Assembly (NCBI GenBank): GCA_001780725.1
Contig: MFIM01000001.1
Location: 19,642 to 83,641 of the forward strand
Origin: Candidatus Giovannonibacteria bacterium RIFCSPLOWO2_02_FULL_45_28
Lineage (GTDB): Bacteria; Patescibacteriota; Minisyncoccia; UBA11713; 2-01-FULL-45-33
Reading direction: 5' to 3'
Length of the DNA stretch: 64,000 nt
Shown: positions 40,703-53,516 of the stretch, piece by piece
Layout of the letters: each line of letters opens with the position of its first letter
Numbering within the stretch: the stretch's first letter is position 1
Position numbers and translations under genes: made by a program
The notes under the pieces: generated by a model
The model's database searches: none
What the model saw: the letters and a program-made list of their open reading frames with translations, nothing else
Told to the model about the DNA's origin: nothing

Positions 40703-40918
40703 CTATTCTGTGTCTTCCCATTCTGCCGGTGAAATACCGGCTTGGCGCAAAATTTCAGAAAGCAAATGCTTGGAAATATCTCCGCGATGAGGATTTGGAA
40801 TGTGCACTTTCAAATCATCCTTCGTCATAAACAAATGGCGGCCACCAGAATAAGGGCCACCGAATCCAAGCTCACGAAATTTCTGCACTAATTTTCTCCA
40901 CGAAACATTCTTAGGCAT
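40703..40918 (-). CDS. hicA: HicA-family (YcfA-like) mRNA interferase toxin
   Basis: KLVQKFRELGF...GGRHLFMTKDDLKVHIPNPHRGDISKHLLSEILRQAGI. Confidence 0.65.
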   Translation of the reverse strand: MPKNVSWRKLVQKFRELGFGGPYSGGRHLFMTKDDLKVHIPNPHRGDISKHLLSEILRQAGISPAEWEDTE

Positions 40919-41156
40919 GTCTTACAAGCTCGCGTCTATCCACCTTAATTTCAAAACCCTGCACTCTCTCGCGGTCCCTGATTTTCAAAAGCAGCCAATC
41001 TTCAAGAACCCCCCTAAGCTCCTTTCTGCAGTCTTCCAAATTTCTTGCACTCGCCCAGACGCCGCGAACGCTCGGGATTTCACCAAAATAACTCCCGTTT
41101 TTAAGAAACTTGTATTTTGCTTCTTTGAGTTTTCTTTCTACGTATTCGTTTAACAT
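40911..41156 (-). CDS. hicB: HicB-family antitoxin (UPF0150)
   Basis: YFGEIPSVRGVWASARNLEDCRKELRGVLEDWL; overlaps hicA by 8 nt. Confidence 0.6.
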   Translation of the reverse strand: MLNEYVERKLKEAKYKFLKNGSYFGEIPSVRGVWASARNLEDCRKELRGVLEDWLLLKIRDRERVQGFEIKVDRRELVRHA

Positions 41157-41272: not shown

Positions 41273-42903
41273 TCAAAACAATGAACTTTGTGCTGGCGCT
41301 TTCGGAATTGTTTCTTCTGCTTTAACGTTTTCAATACTTTTTAATAATTCCGGCCCGCCTCTATTTGCGTCTAGCAAGGCGGGTAGTTTTTTGAAATCAT
41401 TTTCCAATTCTTTTAAAACTTGGGTTGAGCGGAGGGCGGCGGCGGGGTGATACAAAGGATAAATAATTTTGGATTTAATAATTACCCCCTTCCCGTGGCC
41501 AAGCGAAATCTTTGCCGACGGTAAAAAATAGTTCATTGAAAACCTCCCCAAAGTCGCGATAATTTTGGGGTCAATAATTTGAATTTGTTTTTTCAAATAA
41601 GGTTTGTACGCCTCAATCTCCTCCGGCAAAGGATCGCGATTTTCCGGAGGACGGCGCTTTACAATATTTGTGATATACACGCTCTCTCTTGGCCATTTGA
41701 TACCCGCCAAAAGTTTATCCAGAAGTTTTCCCGCCTGCCCGACAAAAGGACGCGAGAGCTTGTCCTCATGAAACCCCGGCGCCTCACCGATAAATATTAT
41801 CTCCGCGTCCGGCCTCCCCTCCCCAAAAACCAAATTCGCCGTCCCAAGAAGCGGCAAACTCTTATCCGCCTCCATTTCTTTTTTTAATTTTTCTAATTCT
41901 TCTGCTTTACTCATTTTATTTAAAATTTTTTGCTTGATTTCAAAAGCGTTACAATGTTTCAAAATTCCTAAGTAAGACTGCAAGTTTTTGGCGTTAACTT
42001 TCTTTAATATTCTCCTTTTTGTCTTCGTTCTTAAAACTCTGTGGTATGGTAAAACAACGTAGCCCAAAAAGTCAACCCCTTGCCGTAATTTTTTAAGTAT
42101 AACTTTGTTGGGATGCAGATTCAACTTTAGTCTTTCCCGCAAAAACTCCGCGACTTCAGGCAGAAGCACCTTGAGATAATTTTCGTTTTGGTGCAGTATT
42201 ATAAAGTCGTCAGTGTATCTGAAATAATGCTTAACATTTAATTTATGTTTAACAAACTGGTCAAACTCGTTCAAATAGATATTAGCGAAAAGCTGGGAGG
42301 TAAGATTACCGATCGGAAGACCACATTTACTCTCTCTCTCTCTCTCGGTGTTTTGAGCTGAAAACTGTCAATAATTTCCTCGCAAAGCCACATGGCTTTT
42401 CTGTCTTTAATTCTTCGCGCCAAAATGTTTTTCAGTATTCGTTGGTCAACCGAATCAAAGAACTTTCTTATGTCGCATTTCAACGCAAAACATGGGCCGG
42501 AGTAATTATGGCTTACTTTTCTTGCGGCTTTTTCCAGCGCCGCTACACCTTTATGCGTTCCCTTGCCGATTCTGCAGGAAAAAGAATTGGCAATAAAGGT
42601 CGGCTCAAAAATGAGGTTAAGAACCTTAAAAACCGCGTGATGCAAGACCCTGTCGCGAACAGCGGCTTTGTGAATATGCCTTATCTTAGGGTCGTGAATA
42701 TAGAAAGAGGTGTAAGAATTATGTTTGTAAGTCATTTCCGCAAGCTGGCGATGGAGTTCAAAAAGATTGTCTTCCAGATTAAATTCAAATTCTTGAACGT
42801 CGGCATTATCCTTTTTCCCTAGTTTAAATTTTTTCCACGCTGAAAATAAATTATTTAAATCAATAATTTGTTCGAATATATGTTTATCGCTTCTCTCACT
42901 CAT
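41273..42903 (-). CDS. DGR-type reverse transcriptase fused to a C-terminal family-4 uracil-DNA glycosylase domain; reading frame broken at a (CT)n microsatellite near 42330-42346
   Basis: ORF 42903-42271: FEQIIDLNNLFSAWKKF, NSFSCRIGKGTHKGV, CDIRKFFDSVD (RT motifs 1-3). Next frame: GLPIGNLTSQLFANIYLNEFDQF, YFRYTDDFIIL (YxDD), VDFLGYVV. Then GEGRPDAEIIFIGEAPG...VYITNIVKRRPPENR...YHPAAALR (UDG family-4 motifs). Confidence 0.8.
42330..42346. repeat. (CT)7-8 dinucleotide microsatellite at the RT frameshift site
   Basis: ttta ctctctctctctctc ggtg; read as RERERE in the upstream RT frame. Confidence 0.8.
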
Positions 42904-43215
42904 AAGTTATGCGAGTTATATAAATTCTTTCACGAATGTTTAAAAACTTTTCCGAAACAAGAAAAATACTCTCTTGGACTAAAAATCGAAAACACCATTT
43001 TAGAAATTTTCGAGTATTCTCTTTCTGCCATGTATCTGCCTAAATACAAAAAGGGCGAAAAAATTAAAATGGCGAGCGATAAGGTGGACTTTTTGAAATA
43101 TCTCATTCGTTTAGCTTACGAAACCGGGTCTTTAAATGCTAAAAAGTATTTTGTGTTGGAAGAAAAAGTTTTAGAGCTAGGTAAAATAATGGGCGGCTGG
43201 TTAAAATCAGTTTAA
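42868..43215 (+). CDS. avd: Avd-like four-helix-bundle DGR accessory protein (23S rRNA IVS protein family)
   Basis: KTFPKQEKYSLGLKIENTILEIFEYSLSA...DFLKYLIRLAYETGSLNAKKYFVLEEKVLELGKIMGGWLKS; opposite strand to RT and TR. Confidence 0.65.
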   Translation: MFEYMFIASLTHKLCELYKFFHECLKTFPKQEKYSLGLKIENTILEIFEYSLSAMYLPKYKKGEKIKMASDKVDFLKYLIRLAYETGSLNAKKYFVLEEKVLELGKIMGGWLKSV

Positions 43216-43259: not shown

Positions 43260-43381
43260 GAAACTACCAGAGGACGACCAGCAATGTTGTCGTTGCGGTT
43301 GTCAGACGAGTTGTAGTTGACATTGGCCAAGCCGCCGTACTTGCGATTGCCGCCGTAAAGACGGTCGGAGTCCTCAAAATT
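43260..43381 (-). repeat. DGR template repeat (TR)
   Basis: ~122 bp aligned with VR; all 17 mismatches fall where TR has A on the minus strand; TR reading frame gives ...SDRLYGGNRKYGGLANVNYNSSDNRNDNIAGRPLV with AAY (Asn) codons. Confidence 0.85.
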
Positions 43382-43677: not shown

Positions 43678-44547
43678 CTAGAAACTCACCAGAGGACGAC
43701 CAGCAATGCCGTCGTAGCGGTCGTCAGACGAGACGCAGCCGACACCGGCCAAGCCGCCGTACCTGCGATAGCCGCCGTAAAGACGGTCGGAGCCCCCAAA
43801 AGGATCACGGAACCACTCCCACATATTGAACCGGCCGCGGTTCGGATCATAAACATTGCCAATGAAGTTGAATTCACCGGCGCGCTCCAGACAAGTTTGA
43901 GCCCGTGTTACTCGCAGTGCCGAAGCCATGTAAGCAAGGACCACATCATCCCACTCTTTAGGTGTTATCGCAAAACGCGAACCACAAGGCGTGTTGTCGT
44001 ACTTACCGATAACTCTTAAGTCGCGGCGTAGCTTTTCAATTATTGGCGCCCATGGGTCGTTCGGAAACACCTGGCTTCCGTCGGTGTAGTCAACTCCGAC
44101 AGAAAAATCTGCAAGACACCAACGACGCTTTAAAGTTACGGCATCGGCGCTTATCTTACCTTCGCGGATTTTCTCGTAAAGCCAGCTTTCCTGTTTTGTG
44201 TAATTCTTCAAAGACCAATCCTTTGCGAGGACAAGATCAATGAAGTAAACCGGATGCATATTGTACTTGGCGGCGTTTTCTAAAAACTCCGGAGTCCAAA
44301 CGCCTGGGACGGGATCAACTTGAAGCCGCCCGAAAAACTTCTTGAGCTTTCGGCGAGCTTGCGCGACAACTTCATCTGCCCAAGCTGGCCCCTTCACAAC
44401 CGCCTCAAGCGGATTTTTTCCTTGAAGTGTGAGAGCGATGCGCTCAACCCAAAGTTCTCCATCCGGCCCAGACCACTTTTCCAACATATCCCTCTGCAAG
44501 CCAAGCAGCTTGCTCGGCAAGCAACCGACCACGTCTAATTTGGCCAT
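43678..44547 (-). CDS. DGR target protein with C-terminal C-type lectin / FGE-sulfatase-like variable domain
   Basis: 289 aa; C-terminus ...NMWEWFRDPFGGSDRLYGGYRRYGGLAGVGCVSSDDRYDGIAGRPLVSF encoded by the VR. Confidence 0.8.
   Translation of the reverse strand: MAKLDVVGCLPSKLLGLQRDMLEKWSGPDGELWVERIALTLQGKNPLEAVVKGPAWADEVVAQARRKLKKFFGRLQVDPVPGVWTPEFLENAAKYNMHPVYFIDLVLAKDWSLKNYTKQESWLYEKIREGKISADAVTLKRRWCLADFSVGVDYTDGSQVFPNDPWAPIIEKLRRDLRVIGKYDNTPCGSRFAITPKEWDDVVLAYMASALRVTRAQTCLERAGEFNFIGNVYDPNRGRFNMWEWFRDPFGGSDRLYGGYRRYGGLAGVGCVSSDDRYDGIAGRPLVSF
43681..43803 (-). repeat. DGR variable repeat (VR) at the 3' end of the target gene
   Basis: Counterpart of TR; conserved GC-rich 3' end ...GCTGGTCGTCCTCTGGT(G)AGTTTC (IMH-like) abuts the stop codon. 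Confidence 0.85.
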
Positions 44548-47990: not shown

Positions 47991-49114
47991 TAAACCAGCT
48001 CATAGATAATGCTTGCGGCGAAAATTAAAATCAAAAATGTTTGATGAATCGGCCCGAACGGCAAAAACCTTGCTGTTCCAGAGCCGGTTTTCCGCAGTTT
48101 CCTCAAAATAAAAATCACAAAAAAACTGTCCAGCGCGATAAAAATGCCGCCAACCACCGAAATAAGTTTTACAAAGTCCTCCAAGCCGGACATAAAGAGC
48201 AGAACCGGGACCAATGCGCCCAAAAACCAGGAAAATATCCTTGGCATATTGAGGTCAAATTCGTAGATAGCTTTGAGGTCGTAAGCCAAAACCAAAAAAG
48301 AAGTAAGGACGGCCAAAAAACCCATTACCGCCCCCAAAATCACAATTTTCACGCCCAAAACGCCGCGCAGGCTGGAGATGGCGTCTTCGGAAATCGCGCC
48401 ATTTACCGCCATAAGCACCGCGACTATAAAAATAACGTACAAGACAAGCGGGACGAGGGTACCCCAAGCAATCACCGATTTTAACTTCGGCTCATCTTCT
48501 TTTTTCTTAAACACTTCCTTGGCATCCGGTATAACGGAGAGTCCGGCTAAAGCGAAAACAAAAATTCCGAACGCGAAAAAAGGATCTCCTCCGCCGGTCG
48601 GCAAATTAGAAAAACTGCCGTTTGAGAGCGACGCCAAAGAAATCAGCAAAATTGCCGCAATCAATGGTATGGTTAAAATTAAATTCAAAAGCCCGATAGT
48701 TTCTATGTTTTCAAAAAATAAAATCGCTACAGATACCGCAAAAAATACTAAAGTCCAAAAAAACGGCGTGCGGCCGAAAATCGTAGAAAGAAAAATTCCG
48801 CCCAGCACTCCGTAAATCAAAAGCGTTGCGTTAAAAAAAATAATCTGCGTTATTTTATTGAAATTGCCCGCGAGCTTTCCCAAATGCAGTTTGGCGTAGC
48901 CCGGCAATCTGTGCCTGCCTTCAGTATTTAAAACCACTTCTCCGTAGGCAAAATGAATGGAAAGAACTGCAAAAAAAGCGAGCGCCATACCGAAAATTGA
49001 CGCCCAAATTCCAGAGACCGAAACCGCGTAAGGCAAAGCAAACATGCCGGAGCCGATAATCATCCCGCCAAATACTCCGAGAGCTTTCCAAAACGGAGAT
49101 TTAAACATCTTCAT
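47978..49114 (-). CDS. amino-acid permease-like membrane transporter (11-12 TM)
   Basis: GVFGGMIIGSGMFALPYAVSVSG resembles the Trp/Tyr permease family N-terminus. Confidence 0.45.
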   Translation of the reverse strand: MKMFKSPFWKALGVFGGMIIGSGMFALPYAVSVSGIWASIFGMALAFFAVLSIHFAYGEVVLNTEGRHRLPGYAKLHLGKLAGNFNKITQIIFFNATLLIYGVLGGIFLSTIFGRTPFFWTLVFFAVSVAILFFENIETIGLLNLILTIPLIAAILLISLASLSNGSFSNLPTGGGDPFFAFGIFVFALAGLSVIPDAKEVFKKKEDEPKLKSVIAWGTLVPLVLYVIFIVAVLMAVNGAISEDAISSLRGVLGVKIVILGAVMGFLAVLTSFLVLAYDLKAIYEFDLNMPRIFSWFLGALVPVLLFMSGLEDFVKLISVVGGIFIALDSFFVIFILRKLRKTGSGTARFLPFGPIHQTFLILIFAASIIYELVYQIF

Positions 49115-49556
49115 GGTTCGCGCCGGACTTGCCTTTGTGAATATATATTTCTACAAACCGCAGCGCCCAAAGCACAAAAAGCACCAAAACAGTCGCGTAG
49201 ATAGCCAACGCATAAAAACCAAAACCAACAGCCATACCAACAGCCGCTGTCGCCCAAAGGCCAGCTGCTGTAGTGAGCCCTTCAAGACGGTCTCCTTTCA
49301 GCAAAATTAGCCCTCCGCCTATAAACCCAATACCAACCACAACCTGCGAGGCAATCCGCGAAGGATCAAAATAAGGCGCCCCCAAAGAACTTTCCACAGA
49401 CATAATAGTAAATAAAGCCGCACCAACGGCTACCAGCATGTAAGTGCGCAACCCTGCGGGCTTGCCGCGATATTCCCTCTCAAAACCAACAAGCATCCCC
49501 AAAAAGGCAGCCAAGGTTAGTTGATAAATCATTTGTATTGTTTCAGGGTTTAACAT
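49101..49556 (-). CDS. mgtC: MgtC/SapB family membrane protein
   Basis: QLTLAAFLGMLVGFEREYRGKPAGLRTYMLVAVGAALFT. Confidence 0.8.
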   Translation of the reverse strand: MLNPETIQMIYQLTLAAFLGMLVGFEREYRGKPAGLRTYMLVAVGAALFTIMSVESSLGAPYFDPSRIASQVVVGIGFIGGGLILLKGDRLEGLTTAAGLWATAAVGMAVGFGFYALAIYATVLVLFVLWALRFVEIYIHKGKSGANHEDV

Positions 49557-49564
49557 AAATAAAA

Positions 49565-50152
49565 TTATGCTTTAACAACTTTTCCTTTTTTAACCATTTC
49601 CAAAACTTTTTCTACCAAGCGTTTCGGGTCGGAGTCGTAAACGATATTACCCGGGCCGCGTTGTGATTTTTCAATAATGTCTCTGATAACTTCTGTAGAG
49701 CCGCCGGAACCCTCCAAAACGCCGATTGGCTTTCCGTCTTCAAGCGCGATGGTAAACTCGTTGATGGTCCCCCAGCGGCCACAGCCGAATATCACGGCAT
49801 CGGCCGAACGGGTTAGAAGCAAATTTCTTCCGGAATATCCAAAGCCGGTGTAAACAATAATATCCATATAATCCATCGGCAGTTTATAAGTCTCAATATG
49901 TTCTTTTTCCGAACCGGCTGGAGAAAGGCCGATGGTAAAACCGTCAGCTTCTTTCGCGCCGATCGCCGCCCAAAAAGGAAAACCTGTTGTGGCGCCGTTT
50001 ACCAAAACAGCGTTATTTTTTGCCACCCAGTGCCCCAATTCTTTTGCCTTATCCAGCGCGTCCGGCGCGCAATGCCCCGTATCCGCCGCCCCGGACACGC
50101 AGATTTTATACTTCAAATGTATATGCTTTCCGTCCATTCTCACATTATACAC
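49565..50152 (-). CDS. LOG/TIGR00725-family Rossmann-fold nucleotide-binding protein
   Basis: ICVSGAADTGHCAPDALDKAKELGHWVAKNNAVLVNGATTG... Confidence 0.55.
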   Translation of the reverse strand: MYNVRMDGKHIHLKYKICVSGAADTGHCAPDALDKAKELGHWVAKNNAVLVNGATTGFPFWAAIGAKEADGFTIGLSPAGSEKEHIETYKLPMDYMDIIVYTGFGYSGRNLLLTRSADAVIFGCGRWGTINEFTIALEDGKPIGVLEGSGGSTEVIRDIIEKSQRGPGNIVYDSDPKRLVEKVLEMVKKGKVVKA

Positions 50153-50242
50153 AATTTCTTAAAAACTTTCATCCTTAACTTATACCCATTACAATGTCTC
50201 AAAACCCCGAGATAAGATTGTAAATTTTTATTGCTCACTTTT

Positions 50243-50410
50243 TTAAATATTCTCTTTTTGAAATTCTAATTTAAGCTCGTTTTTCAGAAACAACGCAATT
50301 ATCGGCAAAAGTTCCTTGAGATAACTCTCGTTTTGGTGCAAGATAATAAAGTCGTCCGTGTATCTAAAATAATGCTTAACTTTTAATTTGTGTTTAATAA
50401 ACTGGTCAAG
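50243..50410 (-). pseudogene. remnant of a second DGR-type reverse transcriptase (motif 5 region only)
   Basis: Reverse strand encodes DQFIKHKLKVKHYFRYTDDFIILHQNESYLKELLPIIALFLKNELKLEFQKENI-stop; about 85% nucleotide identity to 42160-42265 of the RT gene; no upstream RT motifs. Confidence 0.7.
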
Positions 50411-50879: not shown

Positions 50880-51104
50880 TTATAGCAATTTAATAAACTC
50901 GTCTACGGATATTTCCAAATCATTAATAATTCCTTTTAGGATTTTTCTTTTTAAATCTCGGCCGGAATGAACTGGAACAGTAACTCGCCTGCCGTCTAGA
51001 TGCTTAAACTGCGCGTGACTGCCAACTTGGTGGTGCTTAAAAAATCCAAGTTTCTCTAAAACCCGGATAAGTTCTTTGGTTTTAATAATAGGAAGTTTGG
51101 GCAC
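50880..51104 (-). CDS. hicA: HicA-family toxin (second copy)
   Basis: KELIRVLEKLGFFKHHQVGSHAQFKHLDGRRVTVPVHSGRDLKRKILKGIINDLEIS. Confidence 0.65.
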   Translation of the reverse strand: MPKLPIIKTKELIRVLEKLGFFKHHQVGSHAQFKHLDGRRVTVPVHSGRDLKRKILKGIINDLEISVDEFIKLL

Positions 51105-51109
51105 AAAAC

Positions 51110-51361
51110 CTAGGCACGACTTATAGCTAATTCTTTTGCTGAAAATGATTGAATCATCTCCAGCGCCTCCTCTTCTTGTGGAATTAACTCATTATCTTTA
51201 GCCAAACCCTGGATATGGCATTTAATAGCCTCTTTTAAATTCTGTTTAACTTCTTCTAAAGATTCTCCGTAAACATGAACACCTCTTAAAAGAGGGGCAA
51301 ATCCGTGGTATCCCCCATTTTCCTCTGGCTCAACTATAATTCTAAAAGAATACAGCTCCAT
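51110..51361 (-). CDS. hicB: HicB-family antitoxin (second copy)
   Basis: YSFRIIVEPEENGGYHGFAPLLRGVHVYGESLEEVKQNLKEAIKCHIQGL. Confidence 0.6.
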   Translation of the reverse strand: MELYSFRIIVEPEENGGYHGFAPLLRGVHVYGESLEEVKQNLKEAIKCHIQGLAKDNELIPQEEEALEMIQSFSAKELAISRA

Positions 51362-52175: not shown

Positions 52176-53516
52176 TCAAATCTCTACACTCTCGCCGTAT
52201 TTTGGGGCGCGCGCATCAATCCCCAGATAGTCGCGGAGTTTTTGGACGAGAGCCAATGATGATTTCGGTTCGCCGTGGGTTGTGTAAATTTTTTTAAGAG
52301 TGTCGGATTTTTCGCGGACAAACTCCAAAAGCATCGCGTAGTCTGGATGCGCGGAATATCCATAGATGGTTTCTTTGCGGCAGCGAACCGGAATTTTTTC
52401 TCCGAAAATTGTAACTTCGTCCGCTCCATCCTGAATCCTTCTCCCCAAAGAAGCCGGCGACTGGTAGCCGATAAATAAAATTGTGCTTTTTGGGTCCTGC
52501 AAGTGCCTGCGTTCGTGATGCAAAATCCTCCCGCCGGTAGACATTCCGCTCCCAGCAATAATAATCTTGGGCGGCGGCGCGTCATTTATTTTTTTGGATT
52601 CTTCGGTCGTCAAAGCCACGTGAACTTGCGGGAAATTTAAAAAAGAAAAAGACCTTTTATCAACATAGGCCTTGTTGAGATAAGAATAATATTTTTGATA
52701 AACTTCTGTTGCGCGGATGGCCAGCGGGCTATCCAAAAAAATCTGCACATTGGGAACCTGTTTTTTCCGCAGCATATCGGAAATTTCCCAAAGAAGTTCC
52801 TGCGTTTTTTCCAAAGAAAACGCAGGAATCATGAGCACGCCGCCCTGTACGACGCTTTGTTCTATCACCCTTTCCAATTTTAATTTTTTCTCTTCAACAT
52901 CTTCATGTTCGCGGTCGCCGTAAGTTGATTCCAGCACCAAAACCTCCGCCCCCGCGACTTTTTCAAAGCCGTTAAGCAACGGGTTAGCCGGGTTGCCCAA
53001 ATCTCCGGTGAATAATATTTTCTTTCCGCTCGCCTCAACCAAAACCATTGCTGATCCCAAAATGTGGCCGGCGTCATAAAACACAACCTTGAAATCCCCG
53101 ACATTAACGGATTCGTGGTAATTTTTGCCTTCCCAAACAGACATGACGCGGTCAACATCTTCTTCGGTATACGGGACTTTCTCGTTGTCGCGCTCGGCCT
53201 CTTTTGCCATAACGCTGACGCTGTCTTTCAACATAATCTCCGCTAAATCTTTGGTTGGATTAGTTGAATAAATTTTTCCCGAAAAACCCTCTTTTACAAG
53301 CTTAGGAATTCTACCGGTGTGATCCACGTGCGCATGGGTCACAAAAAGCGCCGACACGCTTTTTGGGTCAAACGGAAATGGATCATGGCTTCGTATGTCG
53401 CAAAACTTCGGACACTGAAAAAGGCCGCAATCAATAAGAATTTTGTCTTTCCCGTTCTCCAGCAAAAAACAGCTTCCGGTAACTTCCTGCGCCGCGCCGA
53501 AAAATGAGAGTTTCAT
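52176..53516 (-). CDS. metallo-beta-lactamase / beta-CASP ribonuclease (RNase J / CPSF-like)
   Basis: FLLENGKDKILIDCGL...VTHAHVDHTG (HxHxDH), 446 aa with beta-CASP region. Confidence 0.7.
   Translation of the reverse strand: MKLSFFGAAQEVTGSCFLLENGKDKILIDCGLFQCPKFCDIRSHDPFPFDPKSVSALFVTHAHVDHTGRIPKLVKEGFSGKIYSTNPTKDLAEIMLKDSVSVMAKEAERDNEKVPYTEEDVDRVMSVWEGKNYHESVNVGDFKVVFYDAGHILGSAMVLVEASGKKILFTGDLGNPANPLLNGFEKVAGAEVLVLESTYGDREHEDVEEKKLKLERVIEQSVVQGGVLMIPAFSLEKTQELLWEISDMLRKKQVPNVQIFLDSPLAIRATEVYQKYYSYLNKAYVDKRSFSFLNFPQVHVALTTEESKKINDAPPPKIIIAGSGMSTGGRILHHERRHLQDPKSTILFIGYQSPASLGRRIQDGADEVTIFGEKIPVRCRKETIYGYSAHPDYAMLLEFVREKSDTLKKIYTTHGEPKSSLALVQKLRDYLGIDARAPKYGESVEI
52182..52250. repeat. direct repeat (copy 2), part of beta-CASP gene 3' end
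   Basis: See 51420-51488. Confidence 0.8.

Follow-up and report, generated by a model that had tools for sequence, protein, structure and literature searches.

The present analysis is concerned with a diversity-generating retroelement (DGR) of Candidatus Giovannonibacteria bacterium RIFCSPLOWO2_02_FULL_45_28, located in a stretch of 64,000 nucleotides (assembly GCA_001780725.1, contig MFIM01000001.1, positions 19,642 to 83,641) that we refer to, at its full length, as "the window", and whose own positions are used throughout; the focus is on the reverse transcriptase (RT) gene of this element, the reading frame of which is broken at a microsatellite. The RT is encoded on the reverse strand, and the microsatellite, located by a repeat scan and by frame arithmetic, occupies positions 42330–42346: the forward strand is a perfect C(TC)8 (17 nt, 8.5 units), which reads as (GA)8G on the coding strand and in the mRNA, within the codon context CCG AGA GAG AGA GAG AGA GTA, and splits the RT between motifs 3 and 4. 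The upstream open reading frame (ORF; 42271–42903, reverse strand, by translation) encodes 210 amino acids (aa), i.e. 190 RT residues with motifs 1–3, followed by an out-of-frame tail, RVNVVFRSVILPPSFSLISI, and a stop codon. Downstream of the tract, the frame is −1 (equivalent to +2) relative to the upstream frame, carries ESKCGLPIGNLTSQLFANIYLNEFDQF and YTDD, and stays open to 41273; its RT part (41915–42349, reverse strand; translation, tblastn and PF00078) comprises motif 4 (GLPIGNLTSQLFANIY), YTDD and the thumb. By tblastn, the RT falls into residues 1–190 (42903–42334) and 185–329 (42349–41915) in two frames, and apart from this one frameshift both halves are intact, with every motif present. 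At the end of the upstream ORF, its TGA stop codon overlaps the TTG that opens the downstream ORF (TTGA, 42271–42274, reverse strand), an arrangement that is compatible with translational coupling.

The tract is the sole dinucleotide run of at least six units in the window, where all remaining runs have five units or fewer, and no such run has occurred in any of 100 dinucleotide-preserving shuffles. Computed changes in its length define which alleles are readable: the deletion of one GA unit, or the addition of two, yields a single ORF of 542 aa, while the addition of one unit gives ...PRERERE and then an immediate stop, so that (GA)7 and (GA)10 are in-frame lengths and (GA)8 and (GA)9 are out of frame. 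The RERE residues that are encoded by the tract form an insertion relative to the Bordetella RT, bRT, in the alignment with structure 8ub7, which places the tract in a length-tolerant loop. An earlier, sequence-only reading of this DNA had described a (CT)7–8 microsatellite, with RT motifs 1–3 in ORF 42903–42271 and motif 4 onward in the adjacent frame; this partition is borne out by translation and tblastn, and the tract is real and does break the RT frame, but it is 8.5 units long. The same reading had proposed that the loss or gain of one CT unit would fuse the halves into a single RT of about 550 aa: loss does restore the frame, but the gain of one unit leads to a stop and two are needed, and the resulting single ORF of 542 aa is not all RT.

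The repaired product reaches 542 aa because the RT, of ~330 aa, reads without a stop codon and in the same frame into a family-4 uracil-DNA glycosylase (UDG) domain. The repaired protein matches PF00078 at residues 73–282 (80.4 bits) and PF03167 at residues 359–495 (111.8 bits), and its UDG part matches TIGR00758 with 163.7 bits against a cut-off of 125.3. The closest solved structure to the RT is Bordetella bRT 8ub7 (E = 2.3e-39, residues 6–302 of the frame-repaired protein), thousands of homologues of the DGR type have been found in the candidate phyla radiation (CPR), and the protein belongs to the DGR clade of RTs on condition that one GA unit is removed. The UDG domain (41273–41914, reverse strand; PF03167, TIGR00758) lies in the frame of the C-terminal RT part and has its own internal ATG at 41914, from which, judging by the sequence, it could be translated independently of the RT frame; NCBI has annotated it as a separate protein of 213 aa (P0132). 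It contains the UDG motifs FIGEAPG (GEAPG) and YHPAAALR (HPAA). Canonical family-4 UDGs bind an iron-sulfur cluster through four cysteines; the 213-aa UDG part has none.

Related Giovannonibacteria, in several assemblies that are independent of one another, have RT–UDG fusions of 512–526 aa that are intact (P0022, P0042, P0150, P0155 and P0153), while at one related locus (L126) the UDG is a separate gene that adjoins the RT. In another Giovannonibacteria metagenome-assembled genome (MAG), the RT–UDG is split just after YCDD (P0152/P0154; KKT40663.1/KKT40664.1), at a different lesion, which is not located at a repeat and looks like a deletion or frameshift. The complex of bRT with Avd prefers dUTP over TTP by ~10-fold, and a de-uracilation route to adenine mutagenesis has been raised for conditions where dUTP is high (Handa et al. 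2018, PMC6182149); by analogy, the RT–UDG fusion would fit such a route, and it offers a lead of its own as to how adenine mutagenesis works chemically.

Apart from the RT frame, the DGR of this groundwater bacterium is complete, and it has been active recently. The avd gene (42868–43215, forward strand) is divergent from the RT gene and overlaps its start; its product matches PF22296 (bAvd) with 59.9 bits against a cut-off of 40, and scores 69.9 bits with NF033474 (DivGenRetAVD), under the cut-off of 80. The target gene (43678–44547, reverse strand; 289 aa) has been recognised as an ORF that carries the variable repeat (VR; 43688–43801, reverse strand) at its 3′ end, i.e. at the C-terminus of the protein, and comparison of the repeats places the template repeat (TR) at 43266–43379 on the same strand. 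The two repeats are 114 nt long, are 87% identical and end in an identical G+C-rich stretch of 21 nt; in the core, 13 of the 13 mismatches of the window's VR lie at TR adenines. The target protein has no match in Pfam or NCBIfam profile searches, and is named a sulfatase-modifying factor enzyme domain protein by one source.

A second DGR-type RT is represented by a decayed C-terminal fragment in two frames (50143–50409, reverse strand; tblastn and comparison), ~57–69% identical to the RT described here, which has LDcluster4 and MgtC genes directly downstream of it and a beta-CASP gene upstream (associated regions 49101–50152 and 52176–53516). The gene order around this remnant corresponds to the flanks of the intact DGR of a sister species (L007), from which it follows that this genome has undergone a rearrangement of its DGR cassette; no second intact RT that could act in trans is found in the window, this remnant being the only other RT sequence. 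Two HicA/HicB-like pairs (UPF0150 with a HicA toxin) are present on the reverse strand, one directly 3′ of the RT–UDG (40703–41156) and one between the beta-CASP gene and the RT remnant (50880–51361).

The comparison with orthologous RTs shows that pure repeats recur at the position of the tract. In P0001, the closest orthologue that is intact (331 aa, 73% identity; Giovannonibacteria GW2011_GWC2_44), NPRERESKCGLPIGN is read from a pure (AG)7 that is in frame, and the segment PRERESKCGLPIGN is identical to that of the repaired window protein; a second orthologue (P0002, 71% identity) reads SPERERESTGIPIGN from a pure (GA)8G, which is in frame through a compensating downstream change. At conserved residues, codon identity among the RT genes of the window, P0001 and P0002 is only 0.55, and the remaining homologues have unrelated sequences in the motif 3–4 loop; constraint on the protein therefore does not account for the survival of pure repeats.

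At the locus itself, the length of the tract is constant in assemblies. Over the compared 6.6 kb, the window is identical to contigs of Candidatus Giovannonibacteria MAGs from the Rifle aquifer (GCA_001778755.1, JGI 3300025323). The exact 210-aa truncated product (P0035) is found in four GW2011 MAG records and as A3G55_01530, and four other MAG records (RIFCSP/GWA2) contain its 213-aa UDG companion; in total, P0035 occurs in 83 blocks of assembly collections (NCBI, JGI, ENA and Logan), with (GA)8 in every assembly found, including at least eight NCBI MAGs, and all five distinct places that have been fetched (L001–L005) read (GA)8G. The DNA itself was also searched for: an exact pattern scan of metagenome contigs, with a variable gap over the tract, gave zero matches, though a JGI contig with the locus exists, while protein-seeded scans of metagenome and genome contigs, which are biased against frameshifted RTs, returned only relatives of 48–73% identity and none of the same species, likely because a split match ranks low.

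An in-frame allele has been found at the level of reads. A 500-aa protein assembled from the reads of SRR3990167 (P0131), from the same population, is identical to the window on both sides of the tract and reads FQLKTPRERESKCGLPIGN, i.e. exactly (GA)7, in frame; a chimera with the co-occurring orthologue is unlikely, since the window-specific residues QLKT and VKHKLNVKH are present. The (AG)7 of the closest orthologue is likewise in frame, but every assembly of the same locus has (GA)8.

The history of the VR bears on whether the element has been active. A contig from another groundwater sample (L004, from SRR1658465) equals the window over 6633 nt save for 20 substitutions, which are confined to ~100 nt of the VR and lie nearly all at TR adenines (11 of the 12 core mismatches between TR and VR in this contig are at TR adenines), and its tract is also (GA)8; the contrast of 20 differences in ~100 nt with none in 6.5 kb amounts to variation of the VR within the population. 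The few changes at non-adenine positions fit the report of such changes in CPR DGRs (Wu et al., PMC5758913). From this pattern it follows that at least one retrohoming event separates the two haplotypes, both of which carry the out-of-frame allele. Three ways to this situation can be named: mutagenesis took place after the frameshift, which requires reversion or recoding; the frameshift arose twice, which requires a very mutable tract; or recombination or chimeric assembly uncoupled the VR from the tract, the two sites being 1.35 kb apart. The dominant haplotype is found in 32 contigs and is common to 2011 and later MAGs, and the 90% cluster of the target protein contains the two haplotypes, a one-residue variant of the second and one mosaic protein. 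In the 5′ part of the second haplotype (L004:2094–2194, compared with 43710–43810 of the window), FEDVF matches the sister species, where the window has FRDPF. The mosaic protein (P0144, from a JGI contig of 2581 nt) combines the VR of the window with a divergent central segment of 40 residues; its sequence suggests that related strains have recombined, or that the contig is chimeric. In the orthologous DGR whose RT is intact (L006–L009), the VR haplotypes of four places again number only two, so that the broken element is not visibly less diversified than an intact one.

In order to place the tract in a wider context, 159 distinct loci of related CPR DGR RTs (48–73% identity) from two collections have been scanned for repeats, 150 of which have both of the zones of interest: from −80 to +20 nt of the RT start (the 5′ zone) and from +480 to +640 (the motif 3–4 loop), with G8–G13 or a dinucleotide of at least six units counted as a tract. 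The 5′ zone has a tract in 101 of these 150 loci, either G8–G13 (mode G10) or a dinucleotide, including (GT)12, (GA)8–11 and (TC/CT)17–18; the loop has one in seven, namely (AG)7–11, (CT)14 or G9; 42 loci have neither and none has both (Fisher P = 2.9e-4). Outside the two zones there are three tracts in 694 kb, against 108 within them (39 kb), an enrichment of ~600-fold, and the same site is occupied by differing motifs (G, GA, CT or GT) among loci. Six further RTs with loop tracts, found through protein matches (L171–L174, L010 and L007), have (AG/GA)7–10 and likewise lack a 5′ tract; average-linkage clustering of the RTs distributes the loop tracts over at least four subclades, every time without a 5′ tract.

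The 5′ tract sits in the short head-to-head junction of avd and RT, since avd lies upstream in divergent orientation at 142 of 143 related loci; in about two thirds of the loci it is a G8–G13 run, and others have a long dinucleotide tract in its place. Examples, among loci L011–L170, are L126:2454–2463, L041:2434–2457, L087:2440–2473 and L118:2440–2475. Two modes of action may be considered for these tracts, one through promoter spacing and the other through the reading frame of Avd or RT; in one subgroup of 21 loci, no more than 8 have the ATG of the avd strand in frame across the tract. Several contigs end exactly in the 5′ poly-G tract (L032:1–10, L077:1–11 and L096:1–51, the latter with a C51 end), which may reflect assembly breaks from length heterogeneity or a poly-G sequencing artefact. 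In the window, the RT N-terminus MSERS is encoded by the GA-rich ATG AGT GAG AGA AGC (42885–42903, reverse strand), where some relatives have (GA)8–11, and this stretch may be a decayed 5′ repeat.

With slightly better than even confidence, we read the tract as an ON/OFF switch of the DGR RT that operates by slipped-strand mispairing and is currently OFF. The (GA)n microsatellite sits between motifs 3 and 4 of the RT, in a surface loop that tolerates changes in length, with (GA)7 as the ON length; in the (GA)8 allele, translation leaves the frame, motif 4 is lost and a stop codon follows 23 codons on, and we propose that DGR mutagenesis is OFF in this allele because the resulting 210-aa fragment lacks the catalytic YTDD. 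Slipped-strand mispairing at replication can remove one unit or add two and thereby restore the full RT–UDG, in a population in which most cells would be OFF and a rare few ON, the latter diversifying the target gene anew. The tract of the window would then be one instance of a clade-wide design, in which each RT has one unstable repeat, either at the avd/RT junction or in the motif 3–4 loop.

Several lines of evidence suggest this switch: the (GA)7 allele P0131, the in-frame tracts of the orthologues, the two VR haplotypes, the clade-wide repeats at two sites of the RT gene, and the presence of a single lesion in an otherwise intact frame, in contrast with the truly decayed remnant at 50143–50409. 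A selected mutable switch predicts differing motifs at one site, one tract per RT and the ~600-fold enrichment. We infer that switching is reversible, of sufficient frequency to have an effect, and under selection. More tentatively, and with less than even confidence, we propose that unstable repeats are a selected, clade-wide layer of control on the DGRs of CPR bacteria (Patescibacteria), with one contingency locus gating another and the window as a natural OFF allele.

A number of observations weigh against the switch. There is no polymorphism of tract length at the level of assemblies among the 83 blocks, and with (GA)8 in every assembled contig the assemblies give no demonstration of reversible switching; with the exception of the read-level P0131, the exact products of (GA)7, (GA)10, (GA)4, (GA)9 and (GA)6 are absent from a collection of 15 billion proteins. 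P0131 comes from an error-prone read-level assembler, of which two other products (P0121 and P0122) are chimeric, and has itself a C-terminal frame error; as a single observation of (GA)7, it could represent one unit of PCR stutter. In the relatives, the seven same-species pairs of loci that have been compared all have equal consensus tract lengths, and the cluster members of ten repeat-bearing relatives include no clear slippage variants, only alternative N-termini and one differently broken RT–UDG. Only two VR haplotypes have been seen, the link of the second one to (GA)8 depends on short-read contigs that span sites 1.35 kb apart, and recombination between co-existing strains is plausible. 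The mutual exclusion of loop and 5′ tracts is partly phylogenetic, because 5′ tracts are wholly absent from the subclade to which the window's RT belongs. Lastly, the RT-sense strand carries the G of the 5′ homopolymers at 93 of 93 loci, and nearly all tracts are homopurine/homopyrimidine, while a pure slippage switch predicts neither bias; these biases hint at an additional role of the 5′ tracts in coding, at the RNA level or as non-B DNA. Of the readings that had been drawn from the sequence alone (switch, population heterogeneity or recent inactivation), the switch is supported in part, by the read-level (GA)7 allele and the clade-wide repeats among others.

The main rival of the switch, which we regard as unlikely though as a serious contender, is a recent and plain inactivation: at a mutational hotspot, slippage would have inserted one unit and produced a young pseudogene in the Rifle-aquifer population, and the repeat would have no regulatory role. 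It agrees with the fixation of (GA)8 in every assembly over several sampling campaigns, with the dominance of one VR haplotype from 2011 onwards, with the decay of a DGR that is already known in this genome from the RT remnant, and with the different lesion that splits the RT–UDG of P0152/P0154. A pseudogene is, on the other hand, not what is suggested by a lone lesion within an otherwise intact frame of 542 aa, by two VR haplotypes that share this lesion on identical flanks, by the in-frame read-level allele, or by the pure tracts that are kept in diverged orthologues and the concentration of repeats at two fixed sites of the RT.

Recoding, in which (GA)8 would be the functional form and the frame would be restored by a minority of ribosomes (+2/−1 on AGA GAG) or RNA polymerases (realignment by 2 nt), with a constant low level of full-length RT, is improbable. 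The relation of the frames (−1/+2) permits it, as a slip of 2 nt keeps the codon–anticodon or hybrid register within the repeat, and a low constitutive level of RT would fit the small number of VR haplotypes. Ribosomal frameshifting on the AG repeat, which the sequence-only reading had put forward for testing, has the sequence against it: the region of the tract has no X XXY YYZ slippery heptamer and no stable RNA structure downstream (minimum free energy −17.9 kcal/mol, where shuffles average −20.2; z = +0.77; 162 of 200 shuffles fold as well), and the orthologues and 12 other RTs with loop tracts are in frame at the level of DNA. No case of efficient slippage on a dinucleotide repeat is known to us. 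As a concept, compensatory low-level frameshifting at a repeat indel is known, from the G-run of the herpesvirus thymidine kinase gene (PMC5009743), and this precedent speaks for recoding.

An assembly or sequencing artefact, with (GA)7 as the true sequence and the extra unit as an error, is very unlikely: repeats are error-prone and a read-level (GA)7 product exists, but the same 210-aa product has been obtained from NCBI, JGI, ENA and Logan with different runs and assemblers, in independent assemblies that agree with one another and with all five fetched places. A split enzyme, with two separately translated ORFs that assemble into an active RT, is compatible with the TTGA overlap but is excluded, since neither product has motif 4 in frame: the first ORF is out of frame there and the second starts after it.

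The association of unstable repeats with the RT genes of CPR DGRs appears to be clade-wide and previously undescribed. In agreement with the sequence-only reading, which knew of no phase-variable control of a DGR RT, a full-text search of a library of published papers, which did not include Paul et al. 2017 on CPR DGRs, has returned no description of repeat-mediated control of a DGR RT, and three large DGR surveys do not mention homopolymers, RT frameshifts or uracil. Many DGRs have been classed as active or inactive in large surveys, with no mechanism given (Roux et al. 2021, PMC8144416), and the regulation of DGR activity is largely unknown; a switch by repeat length, acting on the RT or jointly on avd and the RT, would, if true, be a simple and heritable answer for the DGR-rich CPR bacteria, by which cells could limit the cost of continuous self-mutagenesis and still retain a small number of cells that diversify. 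Metagenomes that already exist allow a direct test of the idea. The idea also has consequences for annotation: RTs that are split at such tracts are now filed as hypothetical proteins or pseudogenes, and DGR finders will miss them because these need an intact RT.

Among known systems, the element resembles DGRs of the type found in Bordetella phage BPP-1 (bRT, Avd, TR/VR) in that its RT is closest to bRT, an Avd homologue is present, the TR/VR differences are adenine-specific and the VR is located at the C-terminus of the target; it differs from them in the orientation of avd, which is divergent and overlaps the RT start, in the fusion of the RT to a UDG, in the interruption of the RT frame at a microsatellite and in that some VR changes occur at non-adenine positions, as in CPR DGRs (PMC5758913). 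With sites of programmed ribosomal frameshifting or transcriptional slippage it shares the two overlapping frames for one protein and the repeat at their junction, but the window has no slippery heptamer, homopolymer or downstream stimulatory structure, and the homologues are in frame at the level of DNA. The simple sequence repeat contingency loci of Neisseria, Haemophilus and Campylobacter, which have poly-G or dinucleotide tracts, offer a further comparison: here as there, a non-triplet repeat unit lies in a coding sequence, the length of the tract sets the frame, and related genes have differing repeat motifs at the same site. In Haemophilus, a (TA)n tract is located between hifA and hifB, and the poly-G tracts at the divergent avd/RT junction of the relatives resemble this arrangement. 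In contrast to such loci, consensus lengths here are constant across assemblies and reversible switching at high frequency is not observed, and the gene under control is not that of a surface antigen or a restriction-modification system, but that of an enzyme of a second, targeted system of hypermutation.

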